Source: an uncultured Planctomycetaceae bacterium
Lineage (GTDB): Bacteria; Planctomycetota; Phycisphaerae; SM23-33
DNA: 64,000 bases
NCBI GenBank assembly: GCA_964642165.1
Contig: CAZXOC010000004.1
Coordinates: forward strand, 2,200-66,199
Reading direction: 5' to 3'
This document shows positions 9,577 to 63,892 of the stretch, one piece after another. Every line of letters begins with the position of its first letter. Within the stretch, counting starts at the first letter, position 1. Below the pieces are notes generated by a model. The model worked only from the letters and a program-made list of their open reading frames with translations. It was not told the origin of the DNA and did no database searches. Both the position numbers and the translations under genes were made by a program.

Positions 9577-9592
9577 GCGAGGCCGGTGGGCC

Positions 9593-20334: not shown

Positions 20335-20349
20335 GAGCTCCTGGGCATA

Positions 20350-20468
20350 CTCAACCGGAATTTCCTGGATAGCCTCCGGCCGATCCCGGCGCGCCGGGAC
20401 CGTCGGCCTTTCGGACGATTCTACCGTTGATCCGAGCATCCGCAAACGCCGTTCCTGCTGGATGACGG
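20350..20468 (-). repeat. copy 2 of the ~110-nt inverted repeat (promoter-like boxes + hairpin + leader)
   Basis: The reverse complement aligns with 14516-14625. TTGCGG (20440-20445 on the complement), N16, TAGAAT (20418-20423 on the complement). The hairpin is extended (GGCCGA..TCCCGG CGCG CCGGGA TCGGCC). CTATCCAGGAAAT and AGGAG then precede ATG 20334. Confidence 0.75.
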
Positions 20469-20773: not shown

Positions 20774-20837
20774 CTCCTTACCGATTGGCTCTTCTATCTA
20801 ACCGAACCGGTCGCGATGTCCAATTCCGACTGGAGCT

Positions 20838-21095
20838 TTACAAGGCGGCCTGCTTGGTACGAGCGCGTCCGCCGACCACGTAGCGCATCGAGGGATCGAC
20901 TTTCAGCCGCTCCGCATCGTTGGTGTCCTCGTAGCCGGCCAAGCGACTGAAGACCGACTGCCGCAGCAGCCCGCCGTCCGAGGAGACTTTCGAGCCGTGG
21001 AATTCGAGCTTGATCGAGCCCTCGAAACCCTCCCGGAGAGCGTCCTTGCCGGCTTCACCCATTGCATCTTCGCCTTCTGCCGTCCGTGGCGTCAA
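20838..21095 (-). mobile_element. IS1380-like (DDE group 1) transposase N-terminal fragment, interrupted by the IS3 remnant
   Basis: 85-aa ORF. ..VSSDGGLLRQSVFSRLAGYEDTNDAERLKVDP.. resembles the IS1380-family N-terminus (TSDAGLLLL ... LLRQRV..GYED.ND...LR.DP), apparently with an internal deletion. The frame ends where the putative IS3 end begins. Family assignment is from memory of the motif only. Confidence 0.5.
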
Positions 21096-48533: not shown

Positions 48534-50219
48534 TCACGACAGCAGGTCCGCCCGCTCCGGGCGGAGGATGTGGCGGAGCTTCTTGAGGGCCTGGATCTCG
48601 ATCTGGCGGACCCGCTCCTTCGAGATGCCGAGGTGGCGGCCGAGCTGATCGAACGTCATGGAGCGCCCGCTGTCGTCCAAGCCGTAGTGGTCGATCAGGA
48701 TCGTCCGCTCGCGCGGCGTGAGTTGGGCAAGGACGGCGTCGAGGCTCTCGCGCAGCTCGGGCAGGTTGACCTCATTGGGGTCGTAGGTCCTCAGGGCGGC
48801 GGCGATATCGAGGACCTCGTCGTGGCCGGTGGTGAAGCGGTCGAGCTGGTAGCGCTCGCGCGGCACGGAGCGAGCGAAGTTGCGAATGATGGCCCAGGAG
48901 GCGTAGGTGCTGAAGCGGTTGCCCCGGGAGTAGTCGAACTTCTCGACGGCCATCATGAGCGAGACGTTGCCGTCGCTGATCAGCTCGAAGAGGCCCTGGG
49001 GCCCGCCGACGTGCTTCTTGGCGATGGAAACGACCAGGCGCAGGTTGGCGCGGATGATCCGGTTCTTGACGACGTTGGCCTGGAGCAGGAGCTGCTCGAT
49101 CTCCTTGAGGTCGCGAGTTCGGACGCGGTTCAGGTCGAGCTTGCTGCGGAGCTTGTCGGCCTTGTACTTGAGGTAGTTGTAGAGCCGGAAGAGGTTGCGT
49201 TCGCCCTCGGGGCTCAGCAAGGGCACCTCGTACAGCGCGCGGAGGTAGGGGGGCAAGTTCCTCGGCGGCCTGGGCGCCTGGGGCGCCTGGCCCGAGGCGG
49301 TTCCGGAGCTGCCCAGGGAGGCCTCGAGGATCACGTCGTCGGCGTTCGGCAGGTCGAACTGGGCGTTGTGGACGCACTTGATGGGCCGGCTCAGGAGCTG
49401 CTTTGCCCGCATCTCGTTGACGATGCGGTAGATGCTGCCGCGCGCGCGGTGGTACCGCTCGGCCAGGTCCGGCACGGACGCGCCGCGCAGGAACGCGCGG
49501 TAGATGGCGTTCTTCTCCTCGTCGCCGAGCGGGCCGGCGAGGTAGGGGAAGACGGCATCCTCGGGATGGTCCTTGTCGTGCTTGCGAATGGTGTAGCGGA
49601 TGGTCTCGATGGCGCGGTGGGTGTGACGGGCCAGGCGCCTCGCGACGTCGCTCAGGCTGCACGGGGCGCGCCGGGCCATCCGCCGGGCGCGGCGGATGAT
49701 GTCCCGCCGTTCCTCGTCGGTCATCTGCGTGAACCGGGCGGACCGTTCGACCTGGCGGCTGCGCTGCCGGACAAAGCGCCGGACGGAGCCTTCCAGGAAC
49801 GCCACGCGACGCTTGCCGTTGGGGAAGACGAGTCTCCGAGCGGCCAGCCCGTTGCGGCGCCAGCGTTGGATCGTCTTGGTCGAGACGTTGAAACGCCGCG
49901 CCAGGGCGGCCGTGTCGTAGACCGGCTCGGGGTACTCGTCCGTGGTCAGCTCGAAGCTGTCGCAGATGTCCAGGATCAGCCGCATCAGGTCGGCCCGGAG
50001 TGTCTTGCCGGACATCGGCTCGGCGGGGGGCAGCTCGTCGCCGTGCGGCCGGTAGCCCGTCAGTCGGTAGACCACGAACTCGTAGGGGTACCGGCGAGCC
50101 GGGCCGATGATCTGCACGAGGCCCTCGGCGGAGTCGACGTAGCCCTTCCGGAGGCGCCTCAATCCGGCGGTCAACTCCCTCGCCAGGTCCTCCATAGGCT
50201 TGTTGACGTACTTCCGCAT
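48534..50219 (-). CDS. sigma-70 family RNA polymerase sigma factor with a ~260-aa N-terminal extension
   Basis: ORF 48534..50423, trimmed to MRKYVNKPMEDL. Regions 1.2-4 are recognisable (YLRALYEVPLLSPEGERNLF, NLRLVVSIAKKH, FELISDGNVSLMMAVEKFDYSRGNRFSTYASWAIIRN, TFDQLGRHLGISKERVRQIEIQALKKLR). Confidence 0.9.
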   Translation of the reverse strand: MRKYVNKPMEDLARELTAGLRRLRKGYVDSAEGLVQIIGPARRYPYEFVVYRLTGYRPHGDELPPAEPMSGKTLRADLMRLILDICDSFELTTDEYPEPVYDTAALARRFNVSTKTIQRWRRNGLAARRLVFPNGKRRVAFLEGSVRRFVRQRSRQVERSARFTQMTDEERRDIIRRARRMARRAPCSLSDVARRLARHTHRAIETIRYTIRKHDKDHPEDAVFPYLAGPLGDEEKNAIYRAFLRGASVPDLAERYHRARGSIYRIVNEMRAKQLLSRPIKCVHNAQFDLPNADDVILEASLGSSGTASGQAPQAPRPPRNLPPYLRALYEVPLLSPEGERNLFRLYNYLKYKADKLRSKLDLNRVRTRDLKEIEQLLLQANVVKNRIIRANLRLVVSIAKKHVGGPQGLFELISDGNVSLMMAVEKFDYSRGNRFSTYASWAIIRNFARSVPRERYQLDRFTTGHDEVLDIAAALRTYDPNEVNLPELRESLDAVLAQLTPRERTILIDHYGLDDSGRSMTFDQLGRHLGISKERVRQIEIQALKKLRHILRPERADLLS

Positions 50220-50606
50220 GACCTCGCCGCCCTCTGCAATGCCCGTGCGCAAAGGCCCATTGGCACGGCTGGCCCCGCTCAGTGTGCCTATAGTATGCGG
50301 GACAACCCCAGAAATGGCAACGGGTTTCTGCCCGTCGGCCGCCCGGGGCGGCCCGGGCGCCGGGAGCACCTGGTTGGCCGATGGCGACGCCCCAGGGTCA
50401 GCCGCCGGCCATGTTCGACACAAGTCCTTTCTTCGAAACGAGCAATCTCGACGGACGGCACCGGGTGGACGCCCGAAGTACGGCCAGGGAACCCGCGCCG
50501 GATAAGCCGGCAGGCGGGACCGAGAGCCAAGGGCCGCAACGGCGGCGCCCTTCGTTCGCGCAGACAGAGTGTCCTATCGCAAACGAGCCGCAAGTGCCGC
50601 CGCAGC

Positions 50607-52232
50607 CTAGGGGCTAGGCGGTTCGGGAGCGGGCGTCCCACCCAGCAGCTTCCGGAAATGGGCCGCGTGCTTCGCCACGTAGGGTGAGGCCTCGGCCCGG
50701 CCGAGCTGGTCCAGCACCTCCGTGCCCTTGCGGCGGTACTCGGCGTCCTGCGACAGCCGGTACAGCGCCGCGTAGGCCGCGGCCGTCTGAAGGCGGTAGG
50801 CCCACTGCAGCTTCTTGTCCTTCTCCTTCCGACCGACGAGCTCGGCGGCGTCTTCGTACCGGATGGCCGCCCACCGGAAGTCCTCCTGTGCGGCGGTCTT
50901 CATCTCCTGGGCGTTCGTGCGGTAGGCGGGGACCTGGGTGACGATGTCGGGCACCGTGTTCTGCACGGGCAGGGCTTCCCAGAGCTTGGTGACGCTGGCC
51001 ACGACGTGGTCGAGGCGCTTCTGGAGGCTCAGGCCGGCCAGGCGGAGCTGGCCCTGCTGCATCCGCATGTCGCCCCACATCGAGACGATCGCCGGGTCGG
51101 AGTCCAGTTCCGGCACGTCCATCGGCGCCTGGTCGCCGGTGCAGCCGGCGTACTTCTTGTACTGGCCCTCGGCGCCGCCGTAGGCCTTGTTGGCATCGTC
51201 CTCCTCGTCTCGGGCCTGCTTGCAGAGATCGATGGTCTTGCCGGCCAGCGTCTCCACCTCCTTCTGGCTGTCGGTCACCAGCTGGACGAAGGCGTCGCGT
51301 TCCTGGCGGATGGTCGCCGTTCGCTTCTCGCGGCGGCTGGCGACCTCAGCGGCGGCCGTCCCGCGTCTCTGCGCCGCGGCAACGTCCAGCTTCAGCGTGG
51401 CGATCTGGGAGGCGAGGAACTGGACGGTGTCTTCCAGCTCGGTGATCCGGACGGAGTTGGCCGTGGCCTGGTCCTCCTTGGCCCGGGCCTTGTCGAACAG
51501 CTCGATGCCCTTGATGGGCCCGGCGAGCTGGCTCTGCACGCGGAGCTCGCGGGCGTCGGCCAGCAGCTTCTCGTTGGCCGTGGCCAGCGAGGCCTTCTCC
51601 TTCTCGTGGGCCTGCCTCTTCTGGGTCAGCCCACCGATCTTCCCCTGCGCCGCGGCGATGTCGGCCTTGGCGCCGCCGGCCATCTTCGCCACGGACGGAT
51701 CGGTGACGCTGAGGAGCTGGTCGCAGTTGGCCACGCGTTTGCCGTGATCGCCCATGGCGATGGCGGCGTCCTCCATTCGCCGCAGGAGCGTCCAGGCCTC
51801 GTGGCGCTTCTGGGTGGCGAGAAGAGCCATGCGATCCCCTTCGAGGGCATGGATGCGCGCGAGGACGGCGTGGGCCAGGGCCTTGTCGACGGGCGGCGTG
51901 TCGCTGTCGGCGGCGGCGAGGGCGGCCGACAGCTCGTCGGCGGCCTGCTTCAGCGCCGGCGCCGCCTTGGGGTTCACCATGCCCAGCGGAACCAGCTCGA
52001 TGGCGTTCGGGTCGTCGGGGGCGTCCTTCCGCTCGGTGAAGGGGGCGTAGTCTCCGCCGACCTTGAAGACCGGGTCGTGCAGCACGGCACAGGCCCGGTC
52101 GTAGAGCCGTCGGGCGCGGTTGGTAGCCTTGGCCAGGTCGCTCCGGGCGTCGCCCCCGCAGCCGATCAGCCCAAACGCCGCCCAGCTGAACGCCCCCAAC
52201 AGTACGAACAGCACACGCTTGTCCTTATGCAC
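50607..52232 (-). CDS. coiled-coil lipoprotein, function unknown
   Basis: 541 aa. Lipobox FGLIGCGG, long heptad-like Ala/Lys/Glu-rich stretches. Confidence 0.7.
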   Translation of the reverse strand: MHKDKRVLFVLLGAFSWAAFGLIGCGGDARSDLAKATNRARRLYDRACAVLHDPVFKVGGDYAPFTERKDAPDDPNAIELVPLGMVNPKAAPALKQAADELSAALAAADSDTPPVDKALAHAVLARIHALEGDRMALLATQKRHEAWTLLRRMEDAAIAMGDHGKRVANCDQLLSVTDPSVAKMAGGAKADIAAAQGKIGGLTQKRQAHEKEKASLATANEKLLADARELRVQSQLAGPIKGIELFDKARAKEDQATANSVRITELEDTVQFLASQIATLKLDVAAAQRRGTAAAEVASRREKRTATIRQERDAFVQLVTDSQKEVETLAGKTIDLCKQARDEEDDANKAYGGAEGQYKKYAGCTGDQAPMDVPELDSDPAIVSMWGDMRMQQGQLRLAGLSLQKRLDHVVASVTKLWEALPVQNTVPDIVTQVPAYRTNAQEMKTAAQEDFRWAAIRYEDAAELVGRKEKDKKLQWAYRLQTAAAYAALYRLSQDAEYRRKGTEVLDQLGRAEASPYVAKHAAHFRKLLGGTPAPEPPSP

Positions 52233-52322: not shown

Positions 52323-52979
52323 TCAGGATGATCCGGTCGGTTCCTCGGCGGGCGCCGCGCGGAGCAGCCGGAGGGCGGCCTCGACACACGGCAGGGGAAC
52401 GGCGTGGTCCGGCGCGCCGCGTCGCGCCGGCGCCGCGACCATCAGCGTGGTGCCGCGTGTCTCGATGCTCCCGCCGGTGTCGGCGAGGTCCGCGCAGGCC
52501 TCCGCCAACGCGGCGGCCAGCGCCGCCGGGCCCCGGTAGCGCCACGCGCCCACGTGCCAGCGGCAGTCGCGGGCGGCCAGCGGCGCCAGCTCGGCGTCGG
52601 CGTCGTGCCACATGAGCAGGTACGGCGCGGCGCGGTCGGCCTCGGCCACGACGACGCTGTAGTGGCGCGTCGTCCGGCGCGTGCCGTGCCCGAGCTCACA
52701 GCGGAAGTCGAACGCGCGGAGGCTCCGGCCGTCGACCCGTCCATCGGTGACGTTGTTCGCGCGCGGGCTGTGCCCCCCGGAGATGACGGCGAACTCGCCG
52801 TAGCGCCGGGGCGCGTCGAAGGGGTCGTCGGGGAAGAACCGCATGCCCCGCTCGTGGGCCTTGCGCCCCAGGCGGCGCGTGCGCCGGACGGTCGCCAGGC
52901 CCATGGCCACAAACGAGATGACGGCTGTCATGAGCACGCCGACCAACACAGCCATCAAGGCGTATCGAAGCACGACCAC
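52323..52979 (-). CDS. membrane-anchored hypothetical protein
   Basis: 218 aa. N-terminal TM ALMAVLVGVLMTAVISFVAMGL. Normal composition compared with the overlapping shadow ORFs. Confidence 0.55.
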   Translation of the reverse strand: MVVLRYALMAVLVGVLMTAVISFVAMGLATVRRTRRLGRKAHERGMRFFPDDPFDAPRRYGEFAVISGGHSPRANNVTDGRVDGRSLRAFDFRCELGHGTRRTTRHYSVVVAEADRAAPYLLMWHDADAELAPLAARDCRWHVGAWRYRGPAALAAALAEACADLADTGGSIETRGTTLMVAAPARRGAPDHAVPLPCVEAALRLLRAAPAEEPTGSS

Positions 52980-53046: not shown

Positions 53047-54240
53047 TCAGAAGGGCACGTCCGTTCTCTTCGCCGGCTTGGTGGTGGGACCGGGGATATT
53101 CAGCCCCGGCAGCCCGGTCGAGGGCGCCATCACGTTCGGCGGAAGCTTCTTGATCCCGTAGTCGGGGTGCCTCGGCCCGGCGAGCTTCTTGATCCACTCG
53201 AGCGTCGTCCGATAGCCGCCGGCGGTCGGGGCCCGGAAGGGGGGACGGATCTTCTTCGGGTGGTGCACTTCGGCCTGCGTCGGCGGAAGGGCGTACTGGA
53301 GGAGCAGGGACCTGTCCGCCTGGCCCCGGCGGATCACCTGCTCGCCCTTCTTGTGGAAGGTGGAGAGGATGAGGAAGTTGGTGTAGTCGACGTTGACGTT
53401 GCGGCCGGACAGGTTGTAGAGCTTCAGCCCGCCCTGGCCCTTCCGCGCGCCATGGCATCGGGAGGATCCGCAGGAGCCGGCGATCCACCGCCAGATGCCC
53501 GTGCGGAACTCTCGCATGGCGGCCGGGTCTGTCTTGACGAGGATGCCGGCGCGGATCGGGTCGCCCTCGTCGGTGTTCTGGAGGATGTACATGGCCTGCT
53601 TAGCCCTGGGCCAGCGGCGGAAGGCCCGCTCGGCGCCCTTCTGGGCGAAGTCGGCGGTTCCCTGCATCTTCTTGACGAACCGGTCGATCACGCCCTTGCG
53701 GAAGTCGACGGTGACGCGGTCGTCGTCGCGCAGTTCCTCCCGGCGGATCCCGTAGATGTCGTCCGTCTGGAGGAAGAGCTTCCCGCTGCGAGGTACCGTC
53801 CGGCCGGAGTTGGGGTCGGTGGGCGTCTCCCCGCCGGAGAGCTTCGCCTGGGCCTCGGCCAGCAGCTCGGAGGCCTTGGCGTGGTCCTTCTTGAGGGCCA
53901 GGGCGGCCTTGAAACGGGAGACGGCCTCCTCGTAGAGCTTCTGCTCCATGGCCCACTGCCCCAGCGCCAGGTGGGCGTCGGGGTCCTTGGCGTCGATCTT
54001 GGCCAGCCGCTGCTCGTACTCGGCATCGGGGCTCAGGATGTCCTCGACGGCCTCGATCTGGTCCTTCGGGTAGAAGACGATCGCCAGCTTTCCCTGGACC
54101 TTCACGCCGGCTTCGCTGGTCTCGATGACGTCGCCGACGATAACGCGGCCGTTCTTGAGCTTGATGCGCTTCTTCTCGGCGAGGGCGGGCCAGGCCAGCA
54201 GCAGGCAGCAGACCAGGGGAAGACATGTCTTTCTAGGCAT
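53047..54240 (-). CDS. secreted protein: small N-terminal beta domain + TPR-like helices + PSCyt1-like motif with CX4CH
   Basis: 397 aa with a signal peptide. RIKLKNGRVIVGDVIETSEAGVKV.., HLALGQWAMEQKLYEEAVSRFKAAL, WIAGSCGSSRCHGARKGQGGLKLYN. Confidence 0.7.
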   Translation of the reverse strand: MPRKTCLPLVCCLLLAWPALAEKKRIKLKNGRVIVGDVIETSEAGVKVQGKLAIVFYPKDQIEAVEDILSPDAEYEQRLAKIDAKDPDAHLALGQWAMEQKLYEEAVSRFKAALALKKDHAKASELLAEAQAKLSGGETPTDPNSGRTVPRSGKLFLQTDDIYGIRREELRDDDRVTVDFRKGVIDRFVKKMQGTADFAQKGAERAFRRWPRAKQAMYILQNTDEGDPIRAGILVKTDPAAMREFRTGIWRWIAGSCGSSRCHGARKGQGGLKLYNLSGRNVNVDYTNFLILSTFHKKGEQVIRRGQADRSLLLQYALPPTQAEVHHPKKIRPPFRAPTAGGYRTTLEWIKKLAGPRHPDYGIKKLPPNVMAPSTGLPGLNIPGPTTKPAKRTDVPF

Positions 54241-54381
54241 ACGTCACCTCGTTTCGACACGGCGAGTCCGTGTGCACATCGTATAGATCGACAGCCGAGG
54301 CACAGGGGGGTTAGCAGAGGCAGGCGCGTCCGGCGGGAGGCCCGGCGCGCCTGTTCCGCGGCCCGGCAGGCCCCGGCACAC

Positions 54382-54455
54382 AGGCGGCAGTGGGATTCGA
54401 ACCCACGAATAACGGATTTGCAATCCGTCGCCTTGGTCCACTTGGCTATGCCGCC
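54382..54455 (-). tRNA. tRNA-Cys (anticodon GCA)
   Basis: The reverse complement folds as a cloverleaf. Acceptor GGCGGCA/TGCCGCC, anticodon arm ACGGA-TTGCAAA-TCCGT, T arm GTGGG-TTCGAAT-CCCAC. No encoded CCA. Confidence 0.93.
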
Positions 54456-54513
54456 TTACTCTGGCAAGTATACGCATACCGTTCGAGAGATCAATCCCGA
54501 GGCGCGCCCCGGG

Positions 54514-57500
54514 CTACTTGTGCACGTTGACCTTCCTGGCCTTGGACTTCGCGGCGATCTTCAGGGCCTCGCGACGGATGGCCTCGAATCCCCCCCCCAG
54601 GCCGCCCATCGTCTTGTCCTCCAACTGAAGCATGTTGATGTGGATGACGAGGTTCTTCATGGCCTCGGCGCTGTCGGCGTAGCCCTCGAAGTGGCACTGG
54701 CAGCGCTCCAACTGGGCCCGCCAGTAGACCTTGGGGAACCGGGACTTGTCGATCCCGTCGGTGTAGCGGCGGTAGTACTCCATCGCCTTGTCGTACTGCC
54801 CCAGCCCGCGGTAGGCCCGCGCCAGCCCGATGACGTTGAGGTGATCCACCGTCACGCGTGTCTTCAGCCGCCGCAGGTGGTTCTCCCATCCGCGCACCAG
54901 CAGGGCCACGGGGCGCGGCAGGTGCCGCCGCTCGTCGGCCTGCGTGCGGGCTCGCTTAAGGACCCGGTACGAGAACTCCAGCGTGCTGACATCCACCGAC
55001 TCGTTGGGGTCCTGTCCCCTGGCGACCAGGTCCGCCCGGAACTGGTCGATGAGCCGCCGGACCTGGTCGCGGTTCTTCGCCTTGGGCTGGATGGCGTCGA
55101 TGATCGGCCGGAACTCCTTCTCCAGCCAGTCCGCCTGGACCTTCCGCCGCGCCTGGTCGACTCCGTAGCTCGCCTCGAAGAGGGCCAACGCATTCTGGTA
55201 CGTCCCCTTGGACTCGATCGTCTGCCGGGCGGCCTTCAGGGCCTCGCCCTTCTGAAGAAGGGCGTCCGCGTACATCTGACGCAGCGCGTAGCGCTCGCCC
55301 ACCACGTCGCGCAGCGCGACCACGGCGTTGATGTAGGCCGCGGCCAGGTTCGGCAGGATCTCCCTTTTCGCGGCCGGATCGCCGGCCCCGGCCGCGTCGC
55401 CCATCACCCGCTCGAGCACCGGGGCGGCCTTGATCTCCTGCATCTTCGCTTCGTGCGTCTCCACCAGCGCGGCGTACTCGCCGGCCAGCGCGCGCAGGGC
55501 GTCGAACTCGCCCCTCTTCTCGAGGTCCTCGGCATCCTTGACCTTCGCGTCGAGCGCGGCGAGGTCCACCGGCAGGGCCTCGGACGCCTGGTACAGGTCC
55601 TCGGCGAAGCTCGCGTAGGCCACCTGGTACCGCTGCAGGTCGCTGCGGTACTGCGCCAGGTCCTGCTGCGTGACGGCCTTCTTGATGCGCTTGCGCAGGC
55701 GGTCGATCCGCACCTTGATCTGCTGGACCACGAGCTGGATGAGCTGTTCGGCCTGCTCGGGATACCTGCCCTTGAAGTCCCGGACCTTCTCGATGGCCTC
55801 GGCGGTCTGGCCGCGCTCGATGAGCTTGCGGATCTCGAACTCATAGGCCGTGCGGCGCACCGCCGTGTCCGGCCACTTCCGGATGACCTCGCGGATGTCC
55901 TGAAGGGCCTCCTTCTCCGTGCGCTCGCGGTCCGGCGGCTTCATGCCCTGGGTGAGCTCTTCGTACTTGATGACGGCGGCCTGGAATTCCGCCTCCGCCG
56001 CCCAGTCCTTCAGGCCCGCGATGTGGTCCTGCCAGAGCTTCTTCTCCTTCTCGGGCAGGGCCCCGATCTGGCGTTGGACCTTGGCGATCTCCTGGGCGGC
56101 GTCGCCGCTGTAGGCCTTCAGGCGCGTGATGAGGGCGCCGGGGGCGGAGTAGACCTTCAGGCTCTCGTTCAGCTCCTTGGCGAGCGCCTCGGTTCGCTCG
56201 GCGAGCTTCTCGGGGGCCGGGAGGTTGCCCCCCCCGGCGGCGGGGGCCGTCGTCGCCAGCGGCCGGCCAATCGCCGCCAGCGCCGCCCGGACGTCCACCT
56301 GCTCGTAGGAGAGGACCTGGGCGGCCAGCCGCTTGACCTCCGCGTTGGCCTTGAGCTTCTGCTCCTCGAACTGCCTGGCCAGGTCGCCGCGGTTGAGCAC
56401 GACGGCCGTCCGCAGCCCCAGCGCCGTGTGCTGCGACTCCATGTACTCCCGCAGCGAGGCCGGCACGCCCTCGTAGGCGGCGATGGCGCGTCCCTGCCAG
56501 TAGAACTTGACGGCCTCGTCCTCGCTCATGTCGGCCATCTTCGCGCAGTGCAGGCCGAGGTCGTAGTTCCACTTGACGGCGTCTTCCTCCTTGGCCCACC
56601 CGGCCAGCAGCGTCCCGATGGCCCGGACGAACTCCAGACGGACGTTGGTTTCGAGGAGCTTGCTCTTCTGGCGGCGTTCGTTGACGACGCCCCAGAGGCT
56701 CAGGACGGCGAACTTGGCGGACCGGAACGCCAGGCGGTGCTGCGGGTACAGGCGGGCCAGCAGGACGAAGTACGTCGCCGCCTCGCTGTTGCGCCGGCGC
56801 TTGTTCATCCGGTGGCCCAGCTCCCACATCGCCCCCGGCCGAATGGCCTGCGCGACCTTCGGGTTCTGCATGTCCTTGTGGACGAGGACGCGGCGGAGGA
56901 GGTCCTCGGCGTCGGCGAGCTCGTTGTCGTCCTTGGAATCGATCTTGCTGTAGGCCCGGGCCAGCAGGACGACGGCGCTGGCCTTGTCGAGGTCCTTCAC
57001 GTTGGCGAACTTCGTCGCGACGATGTCCAGGAACGCCCGCACGAGGTCCGGGCGGTCGGCGTAGCGCTCGATGAACCACAGCAGCGTGTCCTGGGCCTTC
57101 GCGCGGAGGGCCCGGACCTGGCGCCGCAGTTGCTTCTGCTTGGCCGAGCCGGGCTTCTCCTTGAGGGCGAGCGCCTCGAGCTTGTCCGCGCGGAGCCCGT
57201 ACATGTAGTTCCGCAGGAAGACCAGGCGCAGGTCGACCTTCGCCTGCTGCCCCTGCCCGAAGACGAACGCCGCGCCCTGCTCGTACTCCTGGATGGCCTT
57301 GTCGGCCTTCTGGGGGTCGCCCTCCTCGATCCGGTTGCGGGCGCGCTCGAACCACGCCCGGGAGCGCAGATCGACGGACCGGGCCTCGGGCACGGCGGCT
57401 TGGTTGAGGAGCTTCTCCGCCCGGTCGTACTGCTTCGTCAGGCGGTGCGCCACGCCGGTGGCGAACAGGGCCCAGTGCTTCCGGCCCCCCAGGGGGTCGC

Positions 57501-58239
57501 CCGCGAACTTCCGCATCTCGGCGACGATGTCCCGGCAGAGCTGGGTCTTCTCGCCGCCGTCGTTCAGCACGCGCGCGCGGGTGAGGCGGATCCACCCGGC
57601 GTTGTAGACCACCTCGCTCTGGATGTCCTCCAACCGGGGCACATAGAGCATGACCCACTCCATGTTCGACCGCCAGTCGGTGAGCGTGTCGGCGATGTCG
57701 TCCTTGAGGTAGTCCATGATCTCGACCGCTTCCTTGGTGAACGTGCGGATCACCTTGCGGTCCTGGTCGCTCCCCTGGAGGTGGCGCAGGCGCAGGAGAT
57801 GGGGATTGGTCACGCGGTGCAGGCCCATCGCCACGGCCAGCTCCAGCGTGTGGCGGAAGTACTCCAGCGTCTGCGGCGGCGTGAGCTTGGGGTCTTTCTC
57901 GCCGAGCTTGACGGCCTGCCGGAGCAGCGGGATGCCCTCGTCGAGCAGGCCGTTGCGCACCTTCTCGTCGGACATGGCCAGCGCCCGGCCGACGCGAATC
58001 CTGCCGCGCAGGCCCACGGCCTTGGCCGACGCGTCGCCCGGGGGAATCCGCTCTTCCATTGCCGCCAGCAGATCGACCATGCCCAGCCGCGATAACTGCT
58101 TGATGAGCTGATCGTCCCGGAGCCGCCGATAGGGGCTGGGGACGTTCTCCTGGGCGACGGCCGAAAGGGAGGCGGCCAGCGCCATAGCGCACGCCGCCGC
58201 CCATGTCCGCCTCAACAGGCCGGTCTGCGTCCTGTTCAT
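54514..58239 (-). CDS. 1241-aa secreted all-helical (TPR-like) repeat protein
   Basis: ORF 54514..58302, trimmed to MNRTQTGLLRRTWAAACAMALAASLSAVAQ. Helical-repeat composition throughout. C-terminal TPR-like IGLARAYRGLGQYDKAMEYYRRY. Confidence 0.8.
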   Translation of the reverse strand: MNRTQTGLLRRTWAAACAMALAASLSAVAQENVPSPYRRLRDDQLIKQLSRLGMVDLLAAMEERIPPGDASAKAVGLRGRIRVGRALAMSDEKVRNGLLDEGIPLLRQAVKLGEKDPKLTPPQTLEYFRHTLELAVAMGLHRVTNPHLLRLRHLQGSDQDRKVIRTFTKEAVEIMDYLKDDIADTLTDWRSNMEWVMLYVPRLEDIQSEVVYNAGWIRLTRARVLNDGGEKTQLCRDIVAEMRKFAGDPLGGRKHWALFATGVAHRLTKQYDRAEKLLNQAAVPEARSVDLRSRAWFERARNRIEEGDPQKADKAIQEYEQGAAFVFGQGQQAKVDLRLVFLRNYMYGLRADKLEALALKEKPGSAKQKQLRRQVRALRAKAQDTLLWFIERYADRPDLVRAFLDIVATKFANVKDLDKASAVVLLARAYSKIDSKDDNELADAEDLLRRVLVHKDMQNPKVAQAIRPGAMWELGHRMNKRRRNSEAATYFVLLARLYPQHRLAFRSAKFAVLSLWGVVNERRQKSKLLETNVRLEFVRAIGTLLAGWAKEEDAVKWNYDLGLHCAKMADMSEDEAVKFYWQGRAIAAYEGVPASLREYMESQHTALGLRTAVVLNRGDLARQFEEQKLKANAEVKRLAAQVLSYEQVDVRAALAAIGRPLATTAPAAGGGNLPAPEKLAERTEALAKELNESLKVYSAPGALITRLKAYSGDAAQEIAKVQRQIGALPEKEKKLWQDHIAGLKDWAAEAEFQAAVIKYEELTQGMKPPDRERTEKEALQDIREVIRKWPDTAVRRTAYEFEIRKLIERGQTAEAIEKVRDFKGRYPEQAEQLIQLVVQQIKVRIDRLRKRIKKAVTQQDLAQYRSDLQRYQVAYASFAEDLYQASEALPVDLAALDAKVKDAEDLEKRGEFDALRALAGEYAALVETHEAKMQEIKAAPVLERVMGDAAGAGDPAAKREILPNLAAAYINAVVALRDVVGERYALRQMYADALLQKGEALKAARQTIESKGTYQNALALFEASYGVDQARRKVQADWLEKEFRPIIDAIQPKAKNRDQVRRLIDQFRADLVARGQDPNESVDVSTLEFSYRVLKRARTQADERRHLPRPVALLVRGWENHLRRLKTRVTVDHLNVIGLARAYRGLGQYDKAMEYYRRYTDGIDKSRFPKVYWRAQLERCQCHFEGYADSAEAMKNLVIHINMLQLEDKTMGGLGGGFEAIRREALKIAAKSKARKVNVHK

Positions 58240-58314
58240 GTCTCTCTCACACCTCTTTCGTGCATCGCCGCCGCCCGGCCGTGTCCCACCCGGATCCGGC
58301 ATCGCCGCAGCTCC

Positions 58315-58833
58315 CTAGGGCGACGACAGCATCGCCAGGTCGTCCCGGGCGAAGGCAATCTTCGTGAACTCCGCGCGGACGGCCTGGTTGAAGGCCTCCA
58401 CGACGAACTCCCACGGCACGGTCGGCTCGGGATGGATCAGCAGGGGCACGTCCCGGCTTCCGATCGCCTCCTGCCGCTGCCGGAGGCGGGTGTACAGCTC
58501 CCGCGGGCCGGCGATCGTCTCCGCCGTGCCGCTCAGCCGGTAGTAGACCATGCCTTCCTGCCCGGACCGATGGAGCGTCACCTCGATGGGGCTGAGGAGC
58601 TTCTCGGCGGCGCGGCCGGGGCCGATGTGCGGCAGGCTCCCGGGGATCACCCCCTCGGTCTCGCGGAACTCGCACGTCAACAGGAAGAACAGCAGCAACT
58701 GAAACGTCACGTCGATCATGGGCGTCAGCGGCGGCTGCATCCGCTGCCGGCGGCGGGAACGCTCTTCGGCGCGCGGGTCGATCGGGCTGGCCTTCTCCAC
58801 CTGGGGGTTCCTCGTCCGCGAGGCCATGGGCAT
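58315..58833 (-). CDS. ExbD/TolR-family protein (paralog 1)
   Basis: ORF 58315..58983, trimmed to MPMASRTRN. TM with the conserved Asp: LTPMIDVTFQLLLFFLL. Confidence 0.85.
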   Translation of the reverse strand: MPMASRTRNPQVEKASPIDPRAEERSRRRQRMQPPLTPMIDVTFQLLLFFLLTCEFRETEGVIPGSLPHIGPGRAAEKLLSPIEVTLHRSGQEGMVYYRLSGTAETIAGPRELYTRLRQRQEAIGSRDVPLLIHPEPTVPWEFVVEAFNQAVRAEFTKIAFARDDLAMLSSP

Positions 58834-59022
58834 GCTCCTCGAAACGACAGCCAGGGGCCCGATGCCAGGAGCCACCGAAGCGCCCGGGCCGGTCCCTTCT
58901 CGCCGCCTGCGCCGCGGAGCGGGGCTCGGCAGGTGCTGTCTGCTCGTACCTGGCTGCGGGCCCCTGGCTGGACGCCGCTGCAATGCCTGCGGCCATGGCC
59001 GCCTCGACGCGCCGCGGCCGCG

Positions 59023-59526
59023 TCACAGTATCTGCTGCGCGAAGCCGATCTTCAGGAACCTCGCGCGAACCGCCTGGTTGAAGGCCTCGACGACGAACTC
59101 CCACGGGACGTCTTCGGCCGGCAGGATCACGATGGGCACCTCGTCGCTGCCGAGCTGCTCCTGTCGCTGCTTGAGATACCCGAACAACTCCGCCGGGCTG
59201 TTGATCACCACGGGCACGCCGGTCATCTCGTAATGGGCCGCGGCGCGGTCGGCCGAGGGGCGCAGCCGGATCTGGATCGGGTCCGGCGGCGGGGTCTGCT
59301 GCTGCTGAAGGACGATGTTTCCCTTGGCCGGCAGCGTACCGGGGATGTTGCCCTCCGACTCGCGGAACTCGCACGTCAGCAGGAAGAACAGCAGCAACTG
59401 AAACGTCACGTCGATCATGGGCGTCAGCGGCGGCTGCATCTTCACGTGCCCCTTCGCGCGCTTCTTGCGCGGCGGGGTGTAGTGGACCGTCTGCTCGCCC
59501 TGAACGGATTTTGCGGATACCGCCAT
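59023..59526 (-). CDS. ExbD/TolR-family protein (paralog 2)
   Basis: 167 aa. KMQPPLTPMIDVTFQLLLFFLLTCEFRESEG. C-terminal VPWEFVVEAFNQAVRARF is shared with paralog 1. Confidence 0.85.
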   Translation of the reverse strand: MAVSAKSVQGEQTVHYTPPRKKRAKGHVKMQPPLTPMIDVTFQLLLFFLLTCEFRESEGNIPGTLPAKGNIVLQQQQTPPPDPIQIRLRPSADRAAAHYEMTGVPVVINSPAELFGYLKQRQEQLGSDEVPIVILPAEDVPWEFVVEAFNQAVRARFLKIGFAQQIL

Positions 59527-59538
59527 GGTGCCCTCTGG

Positions 59539-60066
59539 CTAGTCCTGCTGGGTCAGCGCCGTGATGTTCATCTTCCGCACGCCGGCGGCGACGCCCGCCC
59601 GGATCACCGGGGCCACGTCGTGCCAGTTGACGCGCTTGTCGGCGCGGACCTCGATGACGAACTCCTTGCCCGTCCGCCCGCCGATGGCCCCGGCGGCCTC
59701 GGCCAGGACCTTCTCGTTCTTGACCAGCTCGATGATCGGGTCAATGTCGCCCACGTCGTACTTCTCGCCGTCGATCTCGTACCAGCCGGCATTGGCCGCC
59801 TCCAACGGGTCCTCCGCCTCGCCGCGCGGATCCGCCGAAACCACGTTGATCGTCAGCTTGTTCGGCTCGTTGTAGTCCTTGAGGGGGACGGACTGGCTCT
59901 CATCCGGGCGGGGGATCTTCACGTTCTTGGCGTACGCCTTGTTGGCGATCTGGCTGGCGAGGATGAAGAAGATGATCAACTGGAACGTGCAGTCGATCAT
60001 GGGCGTCATGTTGAAGCTGACCTCGCCCGCGTGGGCGCCCTTGCGGAAGACGAACACTTTCGCCAT
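59539..60066 (-). CDS. ExbD/TolR-family protein (paralog 3, divergent)
   Basis: 175 aa. NMTPMIDCTFQLIIFFIL, with a periplasmic domain ending IEVRADKRVNWHDVAPVIRA. Confidence 0.85.
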   Translation of the reverse strand: MAKVFVFRKGAHAGEVSFNMTPMIDCTFQLIIFFILASQIANKAYAKNVKIPRPDESQSVPLKDYNEPNKLTINVVSADPRGEAEDPLEAANAGWYEIDGEKYDVGDIDPIIELVKNEKVLAEAAGAIGGRTGKEFVIEVRADKRVNWHDVAPVIRAGVAAGVRKMNITALTQQD

Positions 60067-60111
60067 GACTCGTACTCCTTGCCTGCGCCGGGCGGCGGCG
60101 GGTGAGGCGGC

Positions 60112-60744
60112 TCACTCGCTGCCCTTGGGGGCCGGGCGGAACGTCGTGATCAGCTCCTCCGAGGCCATCATCGCCTCGGCGGACAGCGCGTCGATGCGGT
60201 TGCGCATGACGGCGAAGACCGCCAGCGAGGGGATGGCGATCGCCAGCCCCAGCAGCGTCGTGACCAGGGCGATGCCGATGGAGTAGGCCAGCTTGTCCGG
60301 CGAGGGGATGCCCCTGGCCTTCACGATTTCCATGAAGGCGTTGATCATGCCCCAGACCGTGCCCAGCAGGCCCAGCATCGGGCTGACGTTGCCGATGAGG
60401 TTGAGCCACTCGATCCGCCGCAGCAGGTGGGTGGTCTTCTCTTCGGCGGCCTCCTCCATGGCCCGTTCCATGGCGACATATCCGTGGGCCGCCTCCGTCA
60501 GCGCCGCGTGGACCACGTGGCTCAGCATGCTGGGCTCGGTGGCCGTCACCTCGATGGCCTCGCGGTACTGCTTGTTCTCGAAGAGGCCCTGGATCTGCTG
60601 GCGGACGAGGTCCGGCATGACGCTGCCGCGGCGGATCGTGATGAAGTACTGGATGATGATGGCGAGCGTGACGATGCTCAGCCCCCAGAGGATCAACCCG
60701 ATGTACCCGCCGCCGGGCCAGACCAGCGTCTTGAAGTAGTCCAT
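60112..60744 (-). CDS. MotA/TolQ/ExbB-family proton channel
   Basis: ORF 60112..60795, start taken at MDYFKTLV. Three TMs, signature SPMLGLLGTVWGMINAF and LAIAIPSLAVFAVMRNR. Confidence 0.88.
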   Translation of the reverse strand: MDYFKTLVWPGGGYIGLILWGLSIVTLAIIIQYFITIRRGSVMPDLVRQQIQGLFENKQYREAIEVTATEPSMLSHVVHAALTEAAHGYVAMERAMEEAAEEKTTHLLRRIEWLNLIGNVSPMLGLLGTVWGMINAFMEIVKARGIPSPDKLAYSIGIALVTTLLGLAIAIPSLAVFAVMRNRIDALSAEAMMASEELITTFRPAPKGSE

Positions 60745-60900
60745 ACCCTCCTCGGGTCTCACCTGTGCCAGAAACGCCCATGGAAAACTCACCATACTCT
60801 CGATCTCCTCTGCTATGCAGCGACCTTGGGTCGCGCCGTTCGGTGCCTGCCGGTATCCGCCGCGCCCGGACGGGCCCCGGCGGGATGGTTCTTGCGATGC

Positions 60901-61974
60901 TCAGCTTCCGCCGCCCAGGGCGGCCCGGGCCTTCCGGGCCCATTCGGGGTAGCGGATCCGCATCTCCGCCGCGATCAGCCGGTACGCGTTGGCGGCGGCC
61001 ACCCGGTTGCCCAGGTGCTCGCACACCTTCGCCGCCAGGAACGTCGCCTCCGGCACCTCCGGGTAGGACGGGTCCACGCACGCCGAGACCCGCATGAAGG
61101 TCAGCCCCGCGTCGACGAGCGTCTGGCGTTTCCGACTGACGCCCTTCTCGTAGGCCAGCAGCAGCGCCTTGCCGCGAAGCAGCAGCGCCGCCGGCAGCTC
61201 GCGGTCGTCGTAGGTGTCGAGGCGCGCCCGGATCGCCTCGGCGGCTTCGACGTACCGGCCGGCCTTGACCTGGTCCGCCAGGCCCCGCAGCTTGGCGCTG
61301 AGCCCCCCCCCGTTGGTGACGGTCATCGTCGTCGGGGCGACGGGCTCGGTGCTGCCGCCGGTGGCGGGCTTGCCGCCGGTGAGCATCGCCGCCTTGTCGT
61401 CCAGCCCCTCGAGCTTGTACAGCCGCCCCAGCAGGCCCTTGATCCGCCCCTGGAAGTCGCCCTTGGCGCGGTCGAGGCGCGGCTCCAGCAGCCTGATGGC
61501 CTTGGCGTTCTCCGCCGAGCCGCGCTGCCCCAACCGGGACGGGCCCAACGCCAGCGACGCGAGGGAGACGCCCTCGTCGTCCACGATGGCGAGCCAGTCC
61601 TGGACGGCCCGCCCGATGAGCCCCGCGCCGTCCAGCGCCCGCAGCCGGCGGTAGAGGATCAACCGCTTGTGCCACTGCTGGAGGGTGGAGCTCTGGGCGG
61701 CCTTGTCGTAGGCGGCGACGGCCTGGGCGGCCTTGCCGGACTCCATCAGCTTCTCCGCGGCGTTGAAGTTCTTCTGCCCGCCGAGGTCGATGGCGTTGAC
61801 GTCGGCGAGAGGCTTCTGAAACTCGCGCCCGCGAAGCTGGTAGACGATGCGGCCGCTGCTCACCCCCACCAGCCGGACACCCGTGTACGGGATGCTCTTG
61901 ATCGTGATCTGGTCGGCGCGGGCGGCCCCGAAGGCAATCGCCACCATCGCCGCAAGCCTTGTTGTCTGCCGCAT
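60901..61974 (-). CDS. secreted protein: small N-terminal beta domain + helical (TPR-like) region
   Basis: 357 aa with a signal peptide MRQTTRLAAMVAIAFGAARA. ITIKSIPYTGVRLVGVSSGRIVYQL.. parallels the N-terminus of 53047..54240. Confidence 0.7.
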   Translation of the reverse strand: MRQTTRLAAMVAIAFGAARADQITIKSIPYTGVRLVGVSSGRIVYQLRGREFQKPLADVNAIDLGGQKNFNAAEKLMESGKAAQAVAAYDKAAQSSTLQQWHKRLILYRRLRALDGAGLIGRAVQDWLAIVDDEGVSLASLALGPSRLGQRGSAENAKAIRLLEPRLDRAKGDFQGRIKGLLGRLYKLEGLDDKAAMLTGGKPATGGSTEPVAPTTMTVTNGGGLSAKLRGLADQVKAGRYVEAAEAIRARLDTYDDRELPAALLLRGKALLLAYEKGVSRKRQTLVDAGLTFMRVSACVDPSYPEVPEATFLAAKVCEHLGNRVAAANAYRLIAAEMRIRYPEWARKARAALGGGS

Positions 61975-61993
61975 GGCGTCTCCGGAAGCCGGC

Positions 61994-63187
61994 TCACTCG
62001 TCGGTGCTGATCTGGCTGAACCCCCCGCCGTTCTCGTGGGCGATGGTCTTCATGACCTTAATCGCCGCGTCCTGCCGGCCGAGGTACAGGAAGGTGTTGA
62101 TGTACACCATCTCCTTGGGGTCTTTCTTGTTGGTGTCGCGAAGCCACTGGACGACGGCCTCGTTGCCGTTGAGCGTCCGCCCGTCGTTCGTGACGTACGT
62201 GCTGCCGCCGGTGACGCCGGCGAAGTCGCCGTCGCTGAGCAGGTAGACGAGCTTGCCGGGGCGGCTGCGGTCGGCGTACTTCAGCACGGCAAAGGCCCGT
62301 TTCAGCGCCGGCAGGACGGTCGTCTGCCCCGAGGCGGTGACCTTCTTGAGGAAGCGGTTGGCGGCGAGCTTGTTGCTGAAGTCCGCCGACACCAGGCGCT
62401 TCTGGGGGCCCTCGAGGTACTTGTTGTTGCTGAACAGGATGACGCTGAAGTCCTGGATGGGCTTGAGGCGGCTGATGGACTTGAGCATCTCGATGCGGAC
62501 CTCGTCGAAGGTCGGCGCCATCGAGCCGCTCCGGTCCACGACGTAGATGATGTGGTAGGCGTTCCCGCCGGAGCCGAAGAAGCGGCTCCGCGGGCCGCCT
62601 CGCGTGTCGCTGTTGGTCAGGCCGAGCTCCGCCGCCCCGCCCTTCGCGCCGTCCGCCGAGGGGGCCAGCAGCTCGATGGTCTGCTCCGTCTTGCCCTTGT
62701 CGATGCGGTCCTCGCGCTTGGTGTAGCGCCGGACCACGGTGCGGCGGTCGTTGTGGCTGCGGGACAGCGTGCGGGTCTTCGGGTTCATCACCCCGCCGGG
62801 GTTGCGCGGGTTCAGCACGGCGTCGGGGATGATCACGCTGTCGGGCTTCTTCTTGTCCGCGACGACCATCACGAAGAACAGCATGATCAGGAACAACCCC
62901 AGGTGCAGGAAGACGCTGATCACCCAGGGCATGATCATGGCCATGGCGCCCATGACCGCCTCGCCCTCGATGGGCTCTTCCTCTTCGGCGTCCTCGCCGG
63001 CTTGCGACTGAGCCTGCGGGGGAGGAGGGGGCGTCGCGTTGGGGGGGATCTGCGGCCTCGGCAGGGAGGCGAGGCCCTCGGGTACCGTGACCTTCTTCCG
63101 GCAGTGCGGGCAGCGGGCGGTGCTGCCGGGTTGGGCATCGATGCTCAACAGCTTGCCGCAGTTCTCACAACGGAAATCAACGGCCAT
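61994..63187 (-). CDS. zinc-ribbon / Pro-acidic linker / TM / von Willebrand factor A domain protein
   Basis: 397 aa. CENCGK..CPHCRK zinc ribbon, PPNATPPPPPQAQSQAGEDAEEEE, TM AMIMPWVISVFLHLGLFLIMLFFVMVV, MIDAS YVVDRSGSM..SGQTT..LLSDGD. Strong GAGGAGG RBS. Confidence 0.85.
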   Translation of the reverse strand: MAVDFRCENCGKLLSIDAQPGSTARCPHCRKKVTVPEGLASLPRPQIPPNATPPPPPQAQSQAGEDAEEEEPIEGEAVMGAMAMIMPWVISVFLHLGLFLIMLFFVMVVADKKKPDSVIIPDAVLNPRNPGGVMNPKTRTLSRSHNDRRTVVRRYTKREDRIDKGKTEQTIELLAPSADGAKGGAAELGLTNSDTRGGPRSRFFGSGGNAYHIIYVVDRSGSMAPTFDEVRIEMLKSISRLKPIQDFSVILFSNNKYLEGPQKRLVSADFSNKLAANRFLKKVTASGQTTVLPALKRAFAVLKYADRSRPGKLVYLLSDGDFAGVTGGSTYVTNDGRTLNGNEAVVQWLRDTNKKDPKEMVYINTFLYLGRQDAAIKVMKTIAHENGGGFSQISTDE

Positions 63188-63273
63188 CTCTGCACCTCCT
63201 CAGGGGTACCGGCCCGTCCGGCTGGACTCATCCGCGGCCGAACACGAGACTCCCACTGGACGGAAGACACGCA

Positions 63274-63302
63274 TTTCTACCATCTTGAAAGCTATCCCGC
63301 AA
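63274..63302 (-). promoter_or_regulatory. sigma70-like promoter candidate TTGCGG-N17-TAGAAA for the VWA/ExbBD operon
   Basis: The reverse complement reads TTGCGG GATAGCTTTCAAGATGG TAGAAA, about 85 nt upstream of ATG 63187. Same hexamers as in the 14.5/20.4-kb repeat. Confidence 0.3.
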
Positions 63303-63625: not shown

Positions 63626-63802
63626 GATACCGCCTTTTCGGCCCGGCCGCAATCACATTTTCCCGGGCGCCGCGGGCCCAACCCGCCCCACGCGGGTTGG
63701 GCCCGCGGGCAAAAAGGCTGGCAAGCGGGGCATGCGTCATTTATGTTGTCTAGGAAGGCCGTGCCGCCAGCGGGCGGCGAGGTCCGTCGGGACGGACGGC
63801 CT

Positions 63803-63884
63803 GCGAGGGTGGCGGAATTGGCAGACGCGCCAGGTTTAGGTCCTGGTCCCGAAAGGGGTGTGGGTTCGAGTCCCGCCCCTCGCA
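63803..63884 (+). tRNA. tRNA-Leu (anticodon TAG), class II long variable arm
   Basis: Acceptor GCGAGGG/CCCTCGC, anticodon arm CCAGG-TTTAGGT-CCTGG, variable arm TCCCGAAAGGGGTG, T arm GTGGG-TTCGAGT-CCCGC. Confidence 0.93.
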
Positions 63885-63892
63885 GTCGACGC

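Follow-up and report, generated by a model that had tools for sequence, protein, structure and literature searches.

A zinc-ribbon VWA protein as candidate force transducer of a TolQ/TolR-like motor in Phycisphaerae

Our analysis of a 64-kb stretch of an uncultured planctomycete genome (contig CAZXOC010000004.1; in the following the window, which comprises the host genome data examined here) revealed a cluster of seven co-directional genes on the minus strand (54514-63187) that likely encodes a trans-envelope system of the Ton/Tol type powered by the proton motive force. Here, a membrane protein that bears a von Willebrand factor type A (VWA) domain would take the role of TonB or TolA, and we favour a Tol-like output. 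To our knowledge, TonB and TolA had long been the only known carriers of proton energy from the inner membrane to the outer membrane. Recently, Williams-Jones et al. (Mol Biol Evol 2025, msaf138; PMC12204202) proposed a class of vWA force transducers with Tichowtungia aerotolerans as type example, and the system in the window is a variant of this class rather than a categorically new machine. The best-supported part of our reading is the identification of the VWA protein as the transducer, which is based on its architecture, a motif in its transmembrane (TM) helix, conservation and gene fusions.

The seven open reading frames (ORFs) were confirmed at the coordinates that a first-pass annotation had given them, their domains were recovered by Pfam and NCBIfam, and identical metagenome contigs with independent gene calls reproduced the same set. 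The genes encode, in order, the VWA protein, the secreted protein P2, an ExbB-type stator subunit, three ExbD/TolR paralogs and a giant secreted protein (Table 1), and are separated by gaps of 12-195 bp. A GGAGG sequence lies 7 nt upstream of the ATG of the VWA gene, which agrees with the strong ribosome-binding site annotated previously, whereas the promoter annotated at 63274-63302 was not recovered by a consensus scan; planctomycete promoters may not fit that consensus. We treat the VWA gene and the giant gene as the limits of the operon, because a tRNA-Cys gene with its own promoter-like site (TTGATC-16-TATACT at 54494-54467) separates the giant gene from the following gene, P8. The array had been described as continuing down to 47378; its synteny is indeed conserved, but it is interrupted by this tRNA and is not a demonstrated operon.

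Domain scans of the operon and of the other window ORFs (those supported by codon bias plus three ORFs of a low-GC stretch) detected no TonB C-terminal, TolA, TolB, Pal, TonB-dependent receptor, flagellar or gliding domain. Specifically, the TonB C-terminal domain (PF03544) gave no match at E <= 0.1 among the operon proteins and none in a search of the Protein Data Bank (PDB) with a profile of the transducer, and TolA domain III, the TolB beta-propeller and the OmpA-like lipoprotein Pal were absent from the operon and the scanned window ORFs. The cluster is thus, as annotated, a proton-motive-force motor operon without a TonB C-terminal, TolA, TolB or Pal domain.

Architecture of the VWA protein

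From the N- to the C-terminus, the putative transducer comprises a zinc ribbon (aa 1-35; C7xxC10...C26xxC29), a proline-rich and acidic linker, a TM helix, the sequence V-I-I-P-D-A, a disordered domain II and a VWA head (aa 210-397), which was matched by Pfam VWA_2 (8.8e-8) as well as Pfam VWA. An AlphaFold2 (AF2) model is confident for the zinc ribbon (1-35), a helix (76-111) and the VWA head (210-397), the latter with pLDDT values (local distance difference test, predicted) of 85-94, and drops to pLDDT < 50 at 45-75 and 120-201. Domain II covers about 90 periplasmic residues (about aa 112-205), which are of low complexity and variable in length in our alignments. The protein has the topology of TonB, with a cytoplasmic N-terminus, one TM helix, a disordered domain II and a globular C-terminal head. 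The linker had previously been assigned to the cytoplasm, which gives only part of the arrangement, as a second, periplasmic linker of about 90 residues is apparent from the AF2 model.

The head carries an intact metal-ion-dependent adhesion site (MIDAS): in an alignment of 20 homologs with 46-81% identity (A1), D218, S220, S222 and T289 are invariant and D319 nearly so. Together with the Pfam match, this alignment bears out the VWA domain with intact MIDAS and the CxxC..CxxC zinc ribbon of the first-pass annotation. The top Foldseek matches of the head are MIDAS-type VWA domains (E about 1e-10), and the PDB profile search of the transducer returned ITIH4 (1.8e-14). The fold resembles the MIDAS adhesion domains known from ITIH proteins, from SpaC (a pilus adhesin) and from the anthrax receptor, as well as integrin I domains.

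Outside the MIDAS, the TM helix is the most conserved stretch of the protein in the 20 homologs, with P87, W88, S91, H95 and G97 invariant. The equivalent Ser and His remain invariant when the most divergent relatives are included (alignment A5), and the Ser-x3-His spacing is also kept in tandem VWA paralogs. Among 122 additional representatives at 50% identity, S-x3-H with the following hydrophobic run is present in 112 and the MIDAS in 121. Recent cryo-EM structures showed that S16 and H20 of TonB contact S34, W38 and P190 of ExbB, and that S18 and H22 of TolA contact S28, W32 and P187 of TolQ (PMC12215075). Compared with the sequences of TonB (10-32) and TolA (4-34) given in that study, the helix of the VWA protein carries, at the level of its sequence, the Ser-x3-His core of the TonB/TolA motor-docking motif SHLS. 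Moreover, an (I/V)(I/V)(I/V)-P-(D/N)-A-x-L motif is conserved 5-10 residues past the helix in the alignments and is a candidate for the “motor box” of TonB and TolA.

About a quarter of the scanned representatives are devoid of the zinc ribbon, which together with a conserved LPxPxVPP motif was found in 89/122. Since these members retain the rest of the cluster, the zinc ribbon is an accessory module. The relatives without it begin with an Arg-rich flank followed by P-W-x2-S-x3-H and therefore start like TonB (RRLLPWAVSLAVHGAL versus RRFPWPTLLSVCIHGAV in TonB), which supports an N-in/C-out orientation of the transducer. The VWA protein had been named, along with the TPR-like proteins, as a candidate to receive the force, and our analysis supports it as the likely receiver. 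By contrast, the description of the operon as “TonB-less” does not hold in a functional sense, since the invariant S91 and H95 and the periplasmic domain II amount to a TonB topology. On this point the first-pass interpretation is partly refuted, as a cryptic TonB/TolA-like element exists.

Motor subunits, periplasmic partners and evidence for coupling

The ExbB protein was assigned by Pfam (MotA_ExbB, 1.7e-27), and its best PDB matches, which span the full length, are to TolQ (8.5e-12). In NCBIfam, ExbB scored best against TolQ (75.7 bits, cut-off 221) and the ExbD proteins against TolR (21-27 bits, cut-off 127), far under the equivalog cut-offs, so that by sequence they are family-level relatives of TolQ and TolR only. 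The pore residues equivalent to T145, T178 and P187 of TolQ are invariant in 55/55 ExbB homologs. In TM1 of ExbB, a Trp other than the one at the TolQ W32 position is conserved three residues ahead of the Ser (LLWxLS), which mirrors the P-W-x2-S arrangement of the transducer.

All three ExbD paralogs (Pfam 1e-13 to 1e-15) retain the TM aspartate (PMIDC, PMIDV and PMIDV), as had been annotated. ExbD2 and ExbD3 share 50% identity and, by sequence comparison, ExbD3 is a lineage-specific duplicate of ExbD2, while ExbD1 is alike only in the TM region; a phmmer search of the PDB with ExbD1 alone found nothing. Since ExbD2 and ExbD3 are duplicates and ExbD1 is distinct from both, a heterodimer as in AglQ/AglS is suggested.

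P2 consists of a small N-terminal beta-barrel and a C-terminal domain of tetratricopeptide repeats (TPR) that resembles CpoB/YbgF. A profile of 28 homologs matched CpoB (6g5s, E 4.7e-12), YbgF (2xev, 8e-4) and BamD (2e-4), and TPR_6 was detected in 16 of the 28 family members. It is therefore not the anonymous TPR protein of the first-pass annotation, although it falls below the NCBIfam tol_pal_ybgF model and its N-terminal half differs from CpoB/YbgF. The giant protein has a signal peptide according to inspection of its sequence. In domain searches, it showed scattered TPR/CpoB-like matches and neither a GltD-like nor any other specific family.

A census of GTDB species representatives yielded 69 loci, essentially all from metagenome-assembled genomes (MAGs) of Phycisphaerae-type Planctomycetota; presence was counted over the loci with room for the gene in question. 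The recurring order is VWA(x1-3)-P2-ExbB-ExbD1-ExbD2(-ExbD3)-giant-P8-P9-P10(-sigma), and its part from the VWA gene to the giant gene occurs in about 50 species-level MAGs. ExbB was found in 52/56 loci, and the giant gene (1000-1240 aa) directly follows the ExbD genes in 45/48, so that the linkage, whose lack outside the host genome would have refuted the first-pass reading, is strongly conserved. Two ExbD genes are present in 34 loci and three in 12 (12/48), two VWA genes in 23 loci and three in one. The VWA family as a whole comprises 838 representative clusters at E <= 1e-30.

The ribosomal spc/alpha operon, rpoA, rplQ and a GT2 glycosyltransferase gene are located shortly upstream of the cluster. 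A divergent tRNA-Leu(tag) is found upstream of the VWA gene in 25/30 related loci and the co-directional tRNA-Cys(gca) between the giant gene and P8 in 30/30. Across loci L007-L077, the synteny of proteins and tRNAs is unusually rigid. Orphan transducers with zinc ribbon, SH helix and VWA head were observed away from motor genes at two loci (L019 and L041); their neighbours are ribonucleotide reductase or ParA-like genes, or a BatA-type VWA gene and a YhdP-like gene, and provide no functional clue. By analogy with the multiple TonB proteins of some systems, these orphans suggest that several transducers may share one motor.

A physical link between motor and head is supported by natural fusions. 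Two proteins (P0402 and P0378) combine a lipoprotein or signal peptide, an ExbD2-like periplasmic domain (46% and 42% identity to ExbD2, respectively), a proline-rich linker and the same VWA domain, and are devoid of the zinc ribbon and the TM/SH helix. The same ExbD-VWA architecture was recognised by eye at a further locus (L063, about 9160-10555). As judged from their sequences, these fusions provide a Rosetta-stone-type link between the ExbD periplasmic domain and the VWA head and support their physical coupling. Both forms can occur in one genome, since L063 and L017, a locus with the operon, belong to one MAG. In a third architecture (P0392, 638 aa), the VWA domain follows about 400 residues of the repeated sequence “HGFLYDG(K/T)TWKT(L/I)D(V/M)PGA”, which resembles beta-propeller blades.

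Alternatively, the VWA protein might be uncoupled from the motor and have been kept next to it by a frozen core synteny, serving a BatA/BatB-like or other independent role in the membrane. The synteny is so rigid, including tRNAs, GT2 gene and sigma factor, that adjacency is weak evidence for a joint function, and orphan paralogs exist in unrelated contexts. However, the TM helix is highly conserved and carries the TonB/TolA-specific Ser-x3-His pair, ExbD-domain/VWA fusions exist, the gaps within the operon are short, and neither a BatA N-terminal domain nor a MoxR or DUF58 partner nor a match to a defence system was detected. We therefore give this explanation almost no credence. A membrane-anchored VWA protein encoded beside a TPR protein is also found in Bat operons, but these are without ExbB/ExbD, and the BatA N-terminal domain (PF07584) was present only in an unrelated gene at L041. 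The Bat-operon reading was rejected, because the operon and the scanned window ORFs contain no BatA N-terminal domain, MoxR or DUF58. An anti-phage defence system with a MotAB-like motor, such as Zorya, was rejected as well, based on the lack of a PADLOC match for ten proteins and the core-genome position.

Several observations speak against a VWA protein that docks on the motor like TonB or TolA. Docking of the TM helix is deduced from a two-residue sequence motif and its conservation. The Leu and the second Ser of SHLS are unconserved (M102 and V106 in the window protein), although these positions often deviate in TonB as well (PMC12215075). On the motor side, the position of TolQ Trp32, which contacts the transducer His, is mostly Val or Leu in the 55 homologs, whereas that of S28 is Ser in 40/55 and that of P187 is Pro in 55/55, so that the docking site on ExbB appears only partly conserved in sequence. 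The AF2 monomer shows no strand and low pLDDT at the candidate motor box. In one species (L058), the His is lost from both VWA copies, which carry S-x3-N and S-x3-V; Asn is tolerated at H20 of TonB. Finally, the DKKK flank that follows the TM helix of the window protein is, taken alone, a weak argument for the opposite topology. An inverted transducer was rejected, since homologs without the zinc ribbon have Arg-rich N-terminal flanks and a Cys4 zinc ribbon is expected on the cytoplasmic side.

Relation to known systems and possible output

The proposed vWA transducers are tethered to the inner membrane and combine an SHLS helix with a conserved His, a disordered linker with a motor box, a mostly disordered domain II (about 100 residues) and a C-terminal vWA fold (PMC12204202). 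They are reported from Proteobacteria, Planctomycetes and the PVC group, Verrucomicrobia, Bacteroidetes and Rhodothermaeota, and from a gene neighbourhood that comprises a TPR gene, tolQ and a pair of tolR genes (PMC12204202). AlphaFold 3 models place their conserved His on the motor (PMC12204202). Of six listed features, four are present in the window system, namely the helix motif, domain II, the vWA head and the synteny. It differs in gene order, with the vWA gene or genes ahead of TPR-tolQ-tolR-tolR instead of behind them, and in that the transducer carries a zinc ribbon and proline motif, “zinc” being absent from the main text of PMC12204202. Furthermore, the giant protein as an obligate downstream neighbour, the third ExbD of some lineages and the ExbD-VWA fusions are not described in that text. 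The likeness to the Tichowtungia proteins is one of architecture: a profile search with the most divergent VWA members detected no sequence homology, as it matched Phycisphaerae/Planctomycetota only and reached no Tichowtungia or Verrucomicrobia protein. By its architecture, the operon matches a class that had been proposed before but not characterised by experiment, which refutes the first-pass reading in part. That it was derived from genomes and AlphaFold models alone (PMC12204202) counts against our reading as well.

The motor is probably formed by an ExbB pentamer around a heterodimer of ExbD1 and ExbD2 (or ExbD3), with the transducer helix docking outside the pentamer and the (I/V)(I/V)(I/V)-P-(D/N)-A strand pairing with the ExbD periplasmic domain, like the motor box of TonB. 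Proton flow would then exert a pull on the VWA head, with the metal of the MIDAS bound to an acidic residue of another protein. As this partner, we consider the CpoB-like P2 and the 1241-aa protein most likely, the latter perhaps as a periplasmic scaffold. From the cytoplasm, the zinc ribbon and LPxPxVPP motif would probably recruit or regulate the transducer, by analogy with GltJ.

The system shares with Ton a 5:2-type motor with TM Asp and, in the transducer, an R-rich or cytoplasmic N-terminus, a P-W...S-x3-H helix, a strand-like motif behind it and a long disordered periplasmic spacer. In contrast to Ton, the operon and the scanned window ORFs contain neither a TonB C-terminal domain nor a TonB-dependent receptor, and the MIDAS VWA head would bind through a contact between metal and acidic residue instead of beta-strand augmentation. 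Similarities to Tol-Pal include the best matches of the motor to TolQ/TolR, a CpoB/YbgF-like domain in the TPR protein of the operon and the housekeeping genomic position, whereas TolA domain III, TolB and Pal are lacking, and P2 is extended by an N-terminal barrel and additional TPRs.

Because of the resemblance to TolQ, TolR and CpoB, the position in the core genome, the lack of a linked outer-membrane channel and the reported absence of Pal, we favour a Tol-like output, namely a housekeeping envelope function analogous to that of Tol-Pal, such as tethering or organisation of the outer membrane, possibly at division. This is the weakest step of our interpretation and, within the class assignment, a tentative proposal that we regard as possible rather than probable. 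It draws only on resemblance, core-genome position and the reported Pal absence (no pal was found in Planctomycetes according to the supplement of PMC12204202). Moreover, neither an outer-membrane partner nor a peptidoglycan-binding domain nor a division gene is linked to the cluster, and a canonical TonB or Tol-Pal system could be encoded elsewhere in the genome, beyond the 64 kb seen. In its strongest form, the proposal would make the cluster the Phycisphaerae replacement of Tol-Pal: pulled by the TolQR-type motor, the integrin-like MIDAS head would grip P2 and the giant scaffold and thereby tether or constrict the outer membrane, while the zinc ribbon and proline motif would switch or position the transducer. 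The division machinery of planctomycetes is reported to be atypical. We consider this replacement rather unlikely.

The same machine could also have a Ton-like output, in which contact of the VWA head with an outer-membrane channel or a binding protein would energise the import of polysaccharides or other macromolecules, an idea of planctomycete uptake to which the first-pass annotation had alluded. The architecture of the transducer is as near to TonB as to TolA, the tandem and orphan VWA paralogs recall multiple TonB proteins on one motor, and genes for glycan degradation abound in the window (GH95, sulfatase, SASA esterases and GH4), which also contains an ABC importer. Yet none of about 50 loci has a linked gene for an outer-membrane barrel, a TonB-dependent receptor or a binding protein, the cluster resides next to ribosomal genes in a conserved core region instead of islands of the polysaccharide-utilisation type, and the motor and TPR proteins score nearer to TolQ, TolR and CpoB than to ExbB/ExbD. 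On balance, import appears quite improbable to us.

A third possibility is a surface machine similar to Agl-Glt or Nfs, in which a transducer positioned by its zinc ribbon drives gliding, adhesion or the deposition of surface polymers and the giant protein acts as a GltD-like pillar. In Agl-Glt, an AglR pentamer surrounds an AglQ/AglS heterodimer and GltD is the central periplasmic scaffold (PMC11761067). GltJ of Myxococcus is composed of zinc ribbon, linker, GYF domain, TM helix and TonB_C, and its zinc ribbon and linker bind MglB and MglA, thereby switching focal adhesions (PMC11135422). The TolQ-like pentamer with a heterodimeric pair of TolR-like subunits suggested for the window system would parallel AglR/Q/S, a cytoplasmic zinc ribbon and proline-rich linker ahead of the TM helix are shared with GltJ (PMC11135422), and a large scaffold and a TPR protein have counterparts in GltD and GltE (PMC11761067), GltE being labelled as a TPR lipoprotein in NCBIfam. 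Furthermore, a VWA/MIDAS protein, the adhesin CglB, is involved in Glt, a GT2 glycosyltransferase gene is conserved upstream of the cluster, and gliding has been suggested among the roles of vWA transducers (PMC12204202). However, the operon proteins contain no GYF and no TonB_C, the VWA domain belongs to the transducer, and the NCBIfam search revealed no homology to Glt families beyond a weak generic TPR match. Genes for outer-membrane barrels of the GltA/B/H/K type are not linked either, the zinc ribbon is accessory, and the GT2 gene is set apart from the operon in the window by about 730 bp and a divergent tRNA. Taken together, a Glt-like machine seems very unlikely.

For the vWA-transducer class, the Phycisphaerae locus provides a parts list that is conserved class-wide and includes the motor, one to three transducers, a CpoB-like TPR protein and a giant scaffold. 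It also adds a cytoplasmic zinc-ribbon module and natural ExbD-VWA fusions, which support the coupling of motor and transducer. If the output is Tol-like, the system would show how the outer membrane is stabilised or constricted in a phylum reported to be without Pal, and a MIDAS metal-ion bond would be the load-bearing contact of a bacterial motor. If it replaces Tol-Pal, it would represent a bacterial case of “inside-out” control of a force-bearing VWA domain. For now, the locus offers a promising starting point for experiments and does not represent a new category.

Neighbouring genes and other features of the window

Downstream of the tRNA-Cys, P8, P9, P10, a sigma factor and a peptidase are rigidly syntenic neighbours of the operon (Table 1); as parts of the machine they are unproven candidates only. 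P8 combines an Sm/SH3-like barrel, TPRs and a conserved C-terminal domain (AF2 mean pLDDT 83.6). Its N-terminus, a signal peptide followed by a small beta-barrel, is related to that of P2 (hhalign probability 92%). Residues 159-375 form a conserved secreted domain with pLDDT above 90, and the C-terminal domain has no fold match in the PDB at E <= 0.001. A near-invariant C-x5-C-H-G...GGLKL motif recalls planctomycete PSCyt1, with a non-canonical Cys spacing. P8 had been annotated as PSCyt1-like; a corresponding hint from a domain scan was not supported by Pfam across 30 homologs and was discarded.

P9 is conserved also in the most distant of the loci in which it was detected, its conserved domain is probably cytoplasmic, and no relative was found in Pfam or the PDB. 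P10 has a sequence that suggests a coiled coil, its sole database matches being weak and of the SMC type. The sigma-70 family protein (regions 2 and 4) has about 400 extra N-terminal residues with HTH_17, HTH_28, HTH_38 and Mor-like modules, and its gene, a conserved neighbour also in distant loci, is located downstream in L007, L060, L067-L070, L074 and L076.

Table 1. Genes and features of the motor operon and its surroundings in the window
Feature	Coordinates	Strand	Evidence and remarks
tRNA-Leu(tag)	63802..63885	+	ARAGORN and Rfam; divergent, upstream boundary of the operon
VWA force-transducer candidate, 397 aa	61994..63187	-	Pfam VWA_2, alignments, AF2, Foldseek
Transducer TM helix aa 84-110, Ser-x3-His core of SHLS	62858..62938	-	Alignments, local alignment to TonB/TolA
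P2, 357 aa, secreted	60901..61974	-	Profile of 28 homologs
ExbB, TolQ/ExbB-type pentameric stator subunit	60112..60795	-	Pfam MotA_ExbB, NCBIfam, PDB
ExbD/TolR paralog 1 (PMIDC)	59539..60066	-	Pfam ExbD 1.2e-15
ExbD/TolR paralog 2 (PMIDV)	59023..59526	-	Pfam ExbD 2.6e-13
ExbD/TolR paralog 3 (PMIDV)	58315..58827	-	Pfam ExbD 7.4e-13
Giant secreted repeat protein, 1241 aa	54514..58239	-	Signal peptide, scattered TPR matches
tRNA-Cys(gca)	54381..54456	-	ARAGORN and Rfam; between motor operon and downstream genes
P8, 397 aa, secreted	53047..54240	-	AF2, TPR profile matches, synteny
P9, 218 aa, single-pass inner-membrane protein	52323..52979	-	Conservation in 27 loci
P10, 541 aa, lipoprotein with lipobox LIGC	50607..52232	-	Sequence, weak SMC-like NCBIfam matches, synteny
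Sigma-70 family protein, start codon uncertain	48534..50423	-	Pfam Sigma70_r2, r4, HTH domains

Elsewhere in the window, which has a G+C content of about 70%, a stretch of lower GC (0.60-0.63 compared with about 0.70) extends from about 14640 to 21000. It begins at a tRNA-Trp call (14643-14739) that was made by ARAGORN only and not confirmed by Rfam, and encodes a GH95 alpha-fucosidase-type enzyme (14636-16945, +) and a GHL6/sulfatase fusion (17532-20162, -). This stretch may be a horizontally acquired glycan-degradation island. Moreover, an ORF of 1164 codons from stop to stop (4615-8109, -) shows similarity to a family-5 solute-binding protein as well as to an ABC permease domain, and represents either a fusion or two adjacent in-frame genes.

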